Shown here: piece after piece, positions 57,028-60,158 of the stretch | Position numbering within the stretch: position 1 is the stretch's first letter | Layout: every line of letters begins with the position of its first letter | Virus record (IMG/VR): IMGVR_UViG_3300027852_000031 | Location: 90,250 to 154,249 of that record | Reading direction: 5' to 3' (one strand) | DNA: 64,000 nt | Source of the DNA: a virus | Made by a program: the position numbers and the translations under genes | The notes under the pieces: generated by a model | What the model was told of the DNA's origin: nothing | What the model saw: the letters and a program-made list of their open reading frames with translations, nothing else | Databases searched by the model: none

Positions 57028-57687
57028 TTAGTTTTTGAATCCCATTTCATTAGTCAACAAATTAACATCAATCTCGTTATCCAGATCGTGTCCACGTAAC
57101 CATTTGGTAAACTGGGCAACCATTAGCCCAGCCGCGATACTGGCACAATAGATAGTAGTTTTAGCTGTACAAGACCCATTATATGCCTCAGTTTCACTAA
57201 ATAAAGTACTTTCATAGTGTGTACGAGATGCATCGTTATGTGATGTGAAAATTCGCATATATTCTGCACTCATCCTGCCATCTACAAATAGGTTTGCCCT
57301 ATTTTTCACAGTATTAAATATATTGCGTCTAGTCTCAATACCGTCTACACAGCAGAATAAAACACCCCCAGTAAACTGAGTCGTATTGAATTTCCTACAT
57401 GTAGTGGTAATGTCTACTGATGAATTTATAGATTTACATATTCGTTCTACAGCATCGACTTTCGACAATCCCATATCTTGCTCTAAGAACCCCTGTGGTG
57501 CCAGATTTTCCACTTCCACCCTGTCGAAATCGATTAATTTCAGACGTGGCGTACCGATTGCCGCCAATTGAATGGTGACTTGTCTTCCTATTGCACCAGT
57601 CCCGACAATCGTTGCACTAATGGTCGCCAGCTTCTCTGGTGGAATTATGTCTCTTTGTCTGATATCTCTGTCTATTAGTTGGTTCAT
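57028..57687 (-). CDS. ThiF/E1-like ubiquitin-activating enzyme
   Basis: N-terminal R..RQ, GTGAIG, DFDRVEVENL..Q, KV, CCVD, DGRM, candidate catalytic Cys in GSCTAK. Confidence 0.9.
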   Translation of the reverse strand: MNQLIDRDIRQRDIIPPEKLATISATIVGTGAIGRQVTIQLAAIGTPRLKLIDFDRVEVENLAPQGFLEQDMGLSKVDAVERICKSINSSVDITTTCRKFNTTQFTGGVLFCCVDGIETRRNIFNTVKNRANLFVDGRMSAEYMRIFTSHNDASRTHYESTLFSETEAYNGSCTAKTTIYCASIAAGLMVAQFTKWLRGHDLDNEIDVNLLTNEMGFKN

Positions 57688-57688
57688 A

Positions 57689-58582
57689 TTAGCCTTCTTC
57701 CTCTGTTGGAACACATGCGGAATCTACTGTCGCATGACGATCTGCCCATTGTGGCATGAGTTCGGTTATACGTTTGTTTGGCGGGGGAGTACTCCTTTTC
57801 ATTTCATTTCCGTTTTCAGTAAACCAATGTCCCGTATCCGGTTCATACAGATACCACTGTCCATTATCCTCGTCCCACCAGTAGACATCATTTTCTTCAT
57901 CGCAGTAACAATCCATATTGTCTATTTCATCACATACGTCTGGGATATCTACGTCTTCGACTATTGACCTAAACTCCCTATCCATGTCGAATGCTTCGTG
58001 CCCTCTGAACCCAACGTGCCGGAATTCTTCTATGCCGCTTACATGGAATTTTTCTTCAGATACGTTAGATTGATATTCTGCATTCCAAGCAGGTATGTCG
58101 GAACTAGCGAACGGCAGATTCCAGTCGATACATACGTTCAATCTTTTTTCCATACCGGGGCCGACGTTGCTTTTCAGCCTGCAATAAGTCTTACCCCCGT
58201 CTGCTACTATCAGCATTATAGCCCAATTTGGGTGTGAGAATGCGTTTGTAAAATTTTCCTCATCCGTCCAAGATGGTTCCGGACTATCACCTGGATGAGT
58301 ATGTGCTAGAATATTGGTTGCTTGCCATGGCGCCAACCCATCATCTGTCATTTTTTCTACGTATTCTACACAGCTTTCCGCATCTAAATCGAATGTTCCA
58401 GTAGTGCATTTTTGCTTTACTAAACAGAAATCGGTTATCAGTAGTGGGTCTTCTGTTGCTGTAACACAATACCCAGCTACTTCTGTCGCTCCGATATCTC
58501 TCATATAGATTAATTTTGCCCATGCGTATGGTGTGAATCGTATTGTATCAGAAAATGTTGTTTTTGGTTTCATGAAATCCAT
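57689..58582 (-). CDS. JAB/MPN metallo-isopeptidase with acidic tail
   Basis: EVAG ... HTHPGDSPEPSWTD (E-HxH-x7-S-x2-D). Confidence 0.88.
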   Translation of the reverse strand: MDFMKPKTTFSDTIRFTPYAWAKLIYMRDIGATEVAGYCVTATEDPLLITDFCLVKQKCTTGTFDLDAESCVEYVEKMTDDGLAPWQATNILAHTHPGDSPEPSWTDEENFTNAFSHPNWAIMLIVADGGKTYCRLKSNVGPGMEKRLNVCIDWNLPFASSDIPAWNAEYQSNVSEEKFHVSGIEEFRHVGFRGHEAFDMDREFRSIVEDVDIPDVCDEIDNMDCYCDEENDVYWWDEDNGQWYLYEPDTGHWFTENGNEMKRSTPPPNKRITELMPQWADRHATVDSACVPTEEEG

Positions 58583-58583
58583 A

Positions 58584-59846
58584 TCATAGTTCCTTCGTTT
58601 TCTCGACAGTTTCTAGCAAACATTTATGTTTTTTGTCGCAGGGAGGGCAACTGTATGTTCCACAATGATTACATTCACAAGCACAATCTACACAGACACG
58701 TTCCCCGCAATCACTGCACGTCTCACATAGACAATCTTTACAAACAGCTTCTCCGCAATATTTACACATTTCTTTACAATCGCTGCAAATACTATAGCCG
58801 CAACATTCACACTGCGTATCACAATTTATGCATCTATCAGAACCACAGCTGTTACATGTAGATAAGCATTCGCTGCATATTTGATCTGAGCAATCTTCGC
58901 ATATTAAAGTGCACTCATTACACATAGGTGCATGACAACAGTTGCATGATTGAATACAATTATCGCAGTACCATTGTTCACAAGTATCGCACATTGCGCC
59001 ATCGGCACAATTAGCGCATTGGATTGAGTCACAACCGTCACATGACACCTGGTCGTACTCGTCTTTCCATTCTTCGCAGCAAACACAATAGAAGCTGCCT
59101 TCACGATCGGGGCTATACCAACTACTCAAGGGTGTGTGTGGTGACTCTGGATTATATGTCCTTAATATTTTTTCTACTAGGTCGAAATAATCTTCCAATC
59201 TTCCCTGATCTATAGCTAGACTTAGTGAGTACTGACCATTTCCTTCACACAATTCTTCATCAGCGACGTGGGGATGGAAAAACCCATTATATGACTCTTC
59301 ACCGGTTACAGCTATGATGCGCAAACTATTAATTGGTTCGATTATATCTATACTGATCCGGAAGTTGCCCAAATTTACATTTTCTTCGTCATCATCCAAT
59401 ATTATACTTTTGACGAGAATAGATAGCCGTCCATCTTTATACTTTATATCATCCCATCTTTTGGATATAACATCGATTTCTTCTATTAGTTGCCGCAACG
59501 ACACCACAGTCGGCCTACTTGCGTTTGTTAGGTGGGCTATTACTAATTTTATATGGTCTATGGTTGTTGTGCACATATCTGGTATCATCTCTTGCGCAAC
59601 ACTATTATATACGGATTCGCTCAATATACCTTCGTGGTTCGTTTTATCCCACGGAGATCTTTGTATCCTTCTTGTTACCCCATAAAATAACTTATCAGTC
59701 CACACTCGTAATTGATTTATTTTATCATAAGCGGTATCTATAGCCCTATAAACTCTTTTGTTGTCGTATGACGAGCGGCTATCTAGCCTTGTGAGCATCC
59801 ATGTTCTAAATTTATGGGCGACTCTGATCTTTATTTTTTTATTCAT
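58584..59846 (-). CDS. Prokaryotic E2-like conjugating enzyme with C-terminal tandem CxxC region
   Basis: LGNFRISI...FFHPHVADEELCEG (Cys200)...LRTYNPESP; 19 CxxC units. Confidence 0.75.
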   Translation of the reverse strand: MNKKIKIRVAHKFRTWMLTRLDSRSSYDNKRVYRAIDTAYDKINQLRVWTDKLFYGVTRRIQRSPWDKTNHEGILSESVYNSVAQEMIPDMCTTTIDHIKLVIAHLTNASRPTVVSLRQLIEEIDVISKRWDDIKYKDGRLSILVKSIILDDDEENVNLGNFRISIDIIEPINSLRIIAVTGEESYNGFFHPHVADEELCEGNGQYSLSLAIDQGRLEDYFDLVEKILRTYNPESPHTPLSSWYSPDREGSFYCVCCEEWKDEYDQVSCDGCDSIQCANCADGAMCDTCEQWYCDNCIQSCNCCHAPMCNECTLICEDCSDQICSECLSTCNSCGSDRCINCDTQCECCGYSICSDCKEMCKYCGEAVCKDCLCETCSDCGERVCVDCACECNHCGTYSCPPCDKKHKCLLETVEKTKEL

Positions 59847-59876
59847 ATTGTAACTCTGATGTCATAGAGGATTTTA

Positions 59877-59907
59877 TGGGTGGGGGGTGGTTGCCACCCC
59901 CCACCCA
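59877..59907. promoter_or_regulatory. Perfect 14 bp GC-rich inverted repeat between Ubl and E2 genes
   Basis: TGGGTGGGGGGTGG-3 nt-CCACCCCCCACCCA. Confidence 0.75.
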
Positions 59908-59924
59908 ATACAGCTATCAGAATA

Positions 59925-60158
59925 TTACGCACCTTCGATCTTCTGAGGCGCAAGGGTTACCTTGTCTCCATCTCTCAGGACATAGTCTGTCTCAGCAACA
60001 AAACTCTCTCCATCAGATCGAACACGGATAGTGAAATCATCGAGATCACGATCCGGCAAGTAAAAATCCAAAAACGTACCAAGAGTAATACCAGGATTCA
60101 CCGTCAATTGCTGCACACCACCGTCGCCATCGTTCGTTACCAAAGTGACGTTCAACAT
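59925..60158 (-). CDS. Ubiquitin-like beta-grasp protein (77 aa; ATG 60158)
   Basis: AGGAG SD; V.PG.TL..FL...IRV...DYVLRDGDKVTLAPQKIEGA. Confidence 0.85.
   Translation of the reverse strand: MLNVTLVTNDGDGGVQQLTVNPGITLGTFLDFYLPDRDLDDFTIRVRSDGESFVAETDYVLRDGDKVTLAPQKIEGA

Follow-up and report, generated by a model that had tools for sequence, protein, structure and literature searches.

A four-gene cassette for a putative ubiquitin-like conjugation pathway

Does a phage encode a ubiquitin-like conjugation pathway of its own? What has been characterised of ubiquitin-like conjugation in bacteria (Bil, CBASS Cap2/Cap3) serves as a weapon against phages, and a phage-owned cassette would put the same chemistry on the viral side. 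The question is raised by four consecutive genes in a window of 64,000 nucleotides, by which we mean the whole stretch of DNA analysed here, corresponding to bases 90250–154249 of the virus record IMGVR_UViG_3300027852_000031. These genes are predicted to encode a ubiquitin-like protein (Ubl), a protein resembling ubiquitin-conjugating enzymes (E2-like), a JAB/JAMM metallopeptidase and a minimal ThiF-type activating enzyme (E1). Judged from sequence comparisons and structural models, the cassette is probably a phage-encoded ubiquitin-like conjugation cascade. It is in any case more than a chance assembly of genes, because the catalytic residues are invariant at only 25–65% sequence identity and the gene order is kept in many independent contigs.

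An earlier note on this DNA had described four co-oriented open reading frames (ORFs), all of which we find on the minus strand at the positions listed in Table 1. The E2-like and JAB genes as well as the JAB and E1 genes are separated by a single nucleotide each, and the gap between the Ubl and the E2-like gene amounts to 78 nucleotides and contains a 14-bp G/C hairpin. The start codons of the Ubl, E2-like and E1 genes match the N-termini of their homologues.

Table 1. Position of the cassette genes, their predicted parts and further features discussed in the text (window coordinates unless stated otherwise)
Feature	Position	Strand	Basis
Ubl precursor, 77 residues	59925..60158	minus	ORF and ribosome-binding site
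E2-like protein, 420 residues	58584..59846	minus	Predicted structure and motif
JAB/JAMM metallopeptidase, 297 residues	57689..58582	minus	Metal-site motif, near-threshold profile matches
Minimal ThiF-type E1, 219 residues, ATG at 57687	57028..57687	minus	Pfam ThiF
Predicted helical hairpin of the E2-like protein	Residues 3–109, 59520–59840	minus	AlphaFold2 model
Predicted UBC-like alpha/beta core with H191-P-H193 and C200	Residues 117–244, 59115–59498	minus	AlphaFold2 model and motif
Putative CxxC zinc array (short beta-hairpins modelled over residues 250–400)	Residues 250–409, 58620–59099	minus	Model and Cys pattern
Perfect 14-bp G/C hairpin in the Ubl–E2 spacer	59878..59906	minus	RNA fold
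AAA+ ATPase	52569–54143		
DUF3150 protein	51555–52565		
IMPDH-like gene	48610–49983		
Core genes bearing insertions	1959–4721, 5853–7799, 16926–19286, 22146–24848, 26716–29055, 34445–37213; genome 26943–30299		
Large terminase with inserted endonuclease-like segment	Genome 26943–30299, outside the window	plus	
Portal	Outside the window	plus	
Tandem E2-like paralogues (333 and 345 residues; HPHV...LC.GDG, CxxC tails), then JAB and ThiF	Contig L049, 6922–10236		

The Ubl precursor and its predicted processing by the JAB peptidase

The Ubl gene starts with an ATG at position 60158, carries an AGGAG 7 nucleotides upstream and encodes a protein ending in KIEGA. We regard this protein as a candidate beta-grasp protein of the ThiS/MoaD type, for which the support from hidden Markov models (HMMs) is weak but consistent. 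The Pfam ThiS-like match of the window protein has an E value of 0.049 and lies below the cut-off, ThiS matches six of eight Ubl orthologues with a best E value of 0.002 and again below threshold in every case, and matches to Ub-Mut7C and TGS are likewise sub-threshold. A feature match of 0.91 links the Ubl to an Atlas cluster labelled 'molybdopterin converting factor', and a PDB profile search with the Ubl alignment returned chance matches to actin only.

The C-terminus of the protein is fixed as K-[IVL]-x-G across nine orthologues, and the Gly, which is G76 in the window protein, is invariant. Eight orthologues carry the narrower pattern K-[IV]-[DE]-G, the ninth (on contig L048) ending in KIQGA. 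The residues after the Gly number between one and four and read A, AVSL, AVVL, P, A, S, AN, ANS and AVAA in the nine orthologues, and two near-identical contigs differ exactly in the residue following the Gly, which is P in one and A in the other. By this comparison, the A77 that follows the invariant G76 is predicted to be dispensable. The same arrangement was reported by Chambers and colleagues for Type II BilA proteins, in which a universally conserved Gly precedes a variable stretch of at most nine residues (bioRxiv 10.1101/2023.09.26.559546). In the BilA protein of E. aridi, which ends in Gly97-Ala98, the Ala blocks the ATP site of the E1, and the JAB protein BilC cuts after the Gly (bioRxiv 10.1101/2023.09.26.559546). 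Because the Gly-plus-tail pattern of the phage protein matches that of Type II BilA, a removal of A77 by the JAB protein has a comparative basis as well as an experimental precedent. The suggestion of the earlier note that the JAB protein trims the terminal Ala to expose the Gly is thus strengthened by an invariant Gly, by freely varying tails and by the BilA/BilC pair.

The metal site of the JAB protein is complete and comprises E34, H94-T-H96, S104 and D107 in the arrangement ExnHxHx7SxxD. The Glu of the EV motif (E34), the H-[TS]-H-P motif and the P-S-x2-D-E motif with S104 and D107 are invariant in eight JAB orthologues. Profile matches are close to threshold, with the Pfam model Prok-JAB scoring 21.5 bits (E 2e-4) and hence narrowly under its cut-off of 25, the PADLOC JAB model reaching an E value of 2e-5 and the NCBIfam Cap3 model one of 1e-3. 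The catalytic domain comprises approximately residues 1–150. The last 150 or so residues form a C-terminal extension, acidic and rich in Trp, which more distant homologues lack or possess in a much shorter form.

A minimal E1 with a candidate catalytic cysteine

The E1 matches the Pfam ThiF model (PF00899) with 85 bits (E 5e-24, cut-off 28.1) and consists of a single adenylation domain. Eight orthologues all keep R10/R12, the glycines of G29xG31xxG34, D53/D55, D115 and C173. Its best relatives of solved structure are UBA5 (E 4.5e-9), followed by MccB, PaaA and MoeB. C173 lies in a G-x-C-T motif preceding the last long helix and is a candidate for the catalytic Cys. HMMER aligns it, in a low-scoring segment, to the cysteine within UBA5's EGVC motif; this is the catalytic Cys250 of that enzyme and corresponds to the position of Cys184 in ThiF. 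The NCBIfam equivalog models for ThiF and MoeB score the protein far below their cut-offs (68 versus 159, 55 versus 275 and 44 versus 377 bits).

Short ThiF-type E1s of about 30% identity are also found in 76 GenBank phage records, among them crAss-like phages, Flavobacterium phage FpV4 and Xanthomonas jumbo phages, where they are mostly annotated as 'thiamine biosynthesis protein'. This label may be wrong, since the window E1, which matches those genes, is far below the ThiF equivalog cut-offs, and the short E1s of cultured phages may instead be parts of related, mis-annotated tagging modules. In the uncultured crAss-like phage cr111_1 (MT774387.1, 2658–4663), the gene directly upstream of the E1 weakly matches Prok-JAB (E 7e-4).

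An E2-like protein with a predicted UBC fold and a fused zinc array

The E2-like protein contains the motif H191-P-H193-VADEE-L-C200. An exhaustive search with its residues 1–250 yielded 1169 family representatives (at 50% identity) at E <= 1e-3. In an alignment of 139 of them, three positions never vary (H191, C200 and G202), and conservation at P192 and H193 is 90% or higher. AlphaFold2 supplied with this alignment produced a model with a mean predicted local distance difference test (pLDDT) score of 93.3; the single sequence gave a pLDDT of 32, so that a confident model is obtained only with the 139-sequence alignment. Comparison of the model to the PDB using Foldseek retrieved dozens of E2 enzymes, including UbcH7, UbcH5, Ubc13 and UBC9, which account for about 30 of the best 50 rows. 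These matches reach a probability of up to 0.96, with TM scores (target) of 0.45–0.48 over about 150 columns and E values of 0.02–0.1, and presumably align to the core of the E2-like protein. The same search gave LIM, PHD and CHY zinc fingers, which presumably belong to the zinc tail. The model of the ESM Atlas independently matches UQ_con clusters with TM scores of 0.33–0.44.

The order of elements in the model is a helix, a meander of four to five strands, the HPH motif, the Cys nine residues on and two helices. This is the order found in E2s, and the spacing from the first helix is nearly that of UbcH7. Taken together, residues 117–244 very probably adopt a UBC-like fold, for which the structural scores are moderate, and the UBC fold that the earlier note expected of this ORF is backed by AlphaFold2, Foldseek, the ESM Atlas and the HPH/Cys motif in agreement.

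Profile methods did not retrieve this relationship. The Pfam models, including UQ_con and Prok-E2_A to E, gave no match for 39 homologues of the E2-like protein (sets of 10 and 29), hhalign found no match between the family and a single Cap2-like Prok-E2_B sequence, and a profile search against the PDB returned RING, FYVE, PHD and TFIIH-p44 fingers, all weakly, and no E2. VIA-align structure searches mostly picked up coiled coils that match the N-terminal hairpin and are uninformative on the core, and a search of BFVD chiefly yielded Cys-rich and coiled-coil viral proteins.

The C-terminal tail of the protein contains 44 Cys residues and about 20 CxxC units with an alternating spacing of 7 and 8 residues, a number that would suffice for roughly ten zinc sites. 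Among close full-length homologues, the number of CxxC units varies between 15 and 23.

Putative transcription signals around the Ubl gene

The hairpin in the spacer between the Ubl and the E2-like gene has a predicted folding energy of −32.3 kcal/mol (z −4.5), none of 200 shuffled sequences is as stable, and it occurs once in the window. GC-rich hairpins are also present 3′ of the Ubl gene in contigs L006/7, L008, L010, L011 and L012, and, save in L011, a U-tract comes after them. The spacer hairpin probably either terminates transcription in part or stabilises the RNA, and would thereby set the ratio of tag to enzymes in favour of the tag. Two terminator-like hairpins lie on the minus strand directly upstream of the Ubl ribosome-binding site (window 60201–60221 and 60179–60191), one of them with a T-run after it, which suggests that the cassette begins its own transcription unit. 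A promoter scan was uninformative, with 13 sites found and 15.8 expected.

Distribution of the cassette and its position in the phage genome

Six IMG/VR contigs of 65–168 kb identified by a peptide pattern carry the four genes in this order, and so do, as far as the retrieved stretches reach, eleven further IMG/VR contigs of 10–185 kb identified by a DNA motif, which makes at least 17 IMG/VR phage contigs besides that of the window. The cassette is also found in the metagenome contig pair L003/L004, in the 105-kb phage contig L048, whose E2-like protein is shorter, and in the short contigs L011 and L012. The order Ubl-E2-JAB-E1 is retained in L004–L010, L011, L012, L032–L046 and L048. Identity to the window proteins is highest for the E1 (60–65%), followed by the Ubl (48–52%), the JAB protein (42–48%) and the E2-like protein (33–38%). 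The small flanking genes vary among these phages and the cassette persists. Not every relative couples the genes as tightly as the window does: L003/L004 carry three small genes between the Ubl and the E2-like gene, and a gene of no known family encoding 211 residues lies on the opposite strand between their JAB and E1 genes (L003 3017–3652 and L004 4265–4900, minus strand).

In GenBank phages, neither a homologue of the E2-like protein nor a DNA match was found, and a scan of cellular genome contigs with the peptide pattern of the phage subgroup gave no match. The E2-like family occurs in one of 135 genomes from the phylum of one metagenome-assembled genome, where it is encoded on a 3.5-kb contig. 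A bacterial-looking contig of 63 kb, L049, which contains SBP_bac_10/N_methyl, carbamoyltransferase and lipase genes, carries E2-like, JAB and E1 genes (Table 1), and no small Ubl gene was found beside them. The earlier note had seen in the cassette a hint at a planctomycete host. Atlas clusters of related proteins, which are mostly labelled Planctomycetota, and the bacterial-looking contig with its E2-like, JAB and E1 genes partly bear this idea out.

The source virus record comprises 166,379 bp and belongs to a tailed phage. The viral nature of the contig, on which the earlier note depended, is borne out by the virus record and its CheckV completeness of 100% and by the presence of terminase, portal, DNA polymerase, helicase and UvsX. 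On the plus strand, the genes for portal and terminase and large structural genes occupy 23–84 kb of the genome. The genes of the window include a split DNA polymerase, a DnaB-like helicase, a UvsX-like recombinase, ribonucleotide reductase and an exonuclease, and the cassette stands at the head of this long leftward replication/early arm. Base composition is uniform along the window, and an assembly chimera is ruled out because the neighbours of the cassette recur in independent contigs.

In the window, an AAA+ ATPase, a DUF3150 protein, a DUF1257 protein and an IMPDH-like gene are located 3–9 kb downstream of the E1 gene (47500–54143). These genes also lie downstream of the cassette in three further phage contigs (L003 9530–12040, L010 11041–13290 and L048 16171–20695), one of which, L048, has a distant and shorter E2-like protein. 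The co-occurrence with the AAA+/DUF3150 genes may reflect shared phage ancestry alone or a functional link, for example an unfoldase for tagged proteins.

Comparison with known conjugation systems

In its parts, their order and its Gly-plus-tail precursor the cassette is Bil-like, but it is not a member of Bil, because its E1 is not of the IAD-AAD-CYS type and its E2 lies outside the BilB family. BilABCD operons, whether of Type I or of Type II, show the same order of Ubl, E2, JAB and E1, the Ubl of Type II Bil likewise possesses one conserved Gly and a short non-conserved tail, and the adenylation, thioester and lysine chemistry is presumed to be the same. BilD, in contrast, is an IAD-AAD-CYS protein of about 450 residues, whereas the cassette E1 has one adenylation domain and its candidate Cys in the crossover loop. 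The PADLOC BilD model matches this E1 only with an E value of 6.3e-5 and over profile positions 196–317 of 453. No Bil, Pfam or PADLOC E2 model matches the cassette E2, which differs from BilB in its extra N-terminal hairpin and in its CxxC array of about 160 residues. Moreover, Bil is found in bacterial defence islands and the cassette in a phage.

With regard to the E1, the UBA5-UFC1 (UFM1) pathway and MoeB/ThiF resemble the cassette in that their E1 likewise consists of the adenylation domain alone with the Cys in the crossover loop, but the confident alignment spans about 90 residues only. The cassette E1 lacks both the C-terminal UIS/E2-binding tail of UBA5 and the zinc-binding CxxC pairs of MoeB/ThiF.

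The prokaryotic operons described by Iyer, Burroughs and Aravind (2006) and the RING systems of the Caldiarchaeum type combine Ubl, E1-like, E2-like and JAB genes in one operon, as does the cassette. Zinc-finger proteins of prokaryotic E1/E2/JAB/Ubl operons have been proposed as E3-like adaptors (PMC1779556). In the cassette, the zinc array is fused to the E2 and forms a long periodic CxxC rod in place of a single RING, and none of the Pfam models Prok-E2_A to E, which were built from Iyer-type operons, matches the cassette E2. The PRTRC system (ParB-related, ThiF-related; TIGR03734–03741) is a mobile-element cassette that likewise contains a short protein of the ThiF family. Membership in PRTRC was considered and rejected, as TIGR03736 reaches 30.2 bits against a cut-off of 144.75 and the other PRTRC models match none of the four proteins.

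Among viruses, phage Ubl-JAB pairs such as TAPI/TAPK of lambda occur without E1 and E2 (PMC1779556), and for Asgard viruses only E1-like genes have been reported (bioRxiv 10.1101/2021.07.29.454249). Full-text searches of the literature found no description of a complete phage-encoded cassette. Eukaryotic viruses, which encode or hijack ubiquitin enzymes, offer a parallel. The cassette further defines a large E2-like family, with the 1169 representatives mentioned above, that curated models do not recognise and that carries an unusual fused zinc array. Its E1 is about the smallest conceivable, and the cassette would hence offer a compact setting in which to study substrate choice and the passage from E1 to E2 where neither a UFD nor a separate E3 is present.

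Proposed pathway and alternative roles

Were the cassette to act as a conjugation cascade, the Ubl would be produced in excess over the enzymes, with the strong hairpin or terminator following its gene, and the JAB peptidase would remove the residue or residues after G76, here A77. G76 would then be adenylated by the minimal E1, which probably forms a homodimer as MoeB, ThiF and UBA5 do. C173 in the crossover loop of this enzyme may take up the tag in thioester linkage, and from there the tag would be passed on to C200 of the E2-like protein. The N-terminal hairpin and the C-terminal zinc rod with its roughly ten sites might serve as a built-in E3 or substrate adaptor through which the tag is placed onto lysines of the target. 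The JAB protein may also reverse such conjugates.

As to the targets, our guess is that the phage tags proteins of its host, or host defence proteins, at an early stage of infection. This direction is favoured, at low confidence, because across a whole phage clade the cassette keeps its place in the replication/early arm, at a great distance from the structural genes. Tagged host proteins may in turn be handed to the AAA+ ATPase/DUF3150/DUF1257 module in a viral proteasome-like takeover early in infection, a scenario we consider rather unlikely. If both host marking and this hand-over were true, they would amount to a proteasome-like takeover by a virus of prokaryotes, paralleling the hijacking of ubiquitin by eukaryotic viruses.

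Several observations weigh against a conjugation cascade. The E2 assignment is derived from a predicted structure with moderate scores (E 0.02–0.1, TM 0.45–0.48) and a motif, and no E2 model of Pfam, PHROG, PADLOC or NCBIfam detects the protein. The proposed Ubl fold is likewise drawn from HMM matches below their cut-offs, the E1 has neither a UFD nor a separate Cys domain, and the zinc array may be structural only.

It is conceivable that the small protein is instead a sulfur carrier of the ThiS/MoaD/TtuB type, which the E1 activates for the thiolation of a cofactor, of tRNA or of DNA, with an E2-like protein that does not conjugate. The best HMM matches are indeed to ThiF/MoeB models for the E1 and to ThiS models for the Ubl, and it is as 'thiamine biosynthesis protein' that GenBank lists similar short phage E1s, but the ThiF/MoeB matches are far under the equivalog cut-offs, and an E2-like protein that always co-occurs and possesses an invariant Cys has no place in a simple sulfur transfer. 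Genes for Rhodanese, MoaE, ThiG, PP-loop thiolase and cysteine desulfurase are likewise missing from the phage genome, a search in which the control genome sets were all positive. Since the JAB protein and a Gly-plus-tail precursor are also found in some sulfur-carrier clusters, these two features are not decisive (PMC1779556). We regard a sulfur-carrier function as very unlikely. Alternatively, the cassette might modify or mature proteins of the phage itself, for instance during virion assembly. Such a role would find its counterpart in the lambdoid tail-assembly Ubl-JAB pair TAPI/TAPK, but is very improbable given that this pair works without E1 and E2 and that the cassette lies on the strand opposite to the structural module and distant from it.

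The same conjugation chemistry could also be directed at other phages, in inter-phage competition or superinfection exclusion, with the structural proteins of rivals being tagged as Bil tags the central tail fibre. The sole characterised four-gene Ubl/E2/JAB/E1 systems are anti-phage, the gene order is that of BilABCD, and the E2-like protein evolves fastest, with the 33–38% identity given above versus 60–65% for the E1, which would fit an arms race over targets. Such a role nevertheless appears improbable to us, as the cassette, unlike a sporadic moron, is retained stably and in synteny within the replication/early arm throughout a whole clade of large phages, its E1 and E2 are outside the Bil families, and a defence-island context is absent. 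A conjugation cascade directed at proteins of the host remains our preferred, if tentative, assignment of its role.

Other features of the genome

Upstream of the cassette, the window encodes a phosphoribosyltransferase-domain protein, a calcineurin-like phosphoesterase and a tRNA-Lys(UUU) (window 62207–63489 and 62713–62786). Many core genes of the phage contain selfish insertions in the form of endonuclease-like or intein-like segments (phrog_4645, phrog_9666), an unusually heavy load that affects the DNA polymerase (two ORFs), the helicase, the UvsX-like recombinase, ribonucleotide reductase and the large terminase (Table 1).

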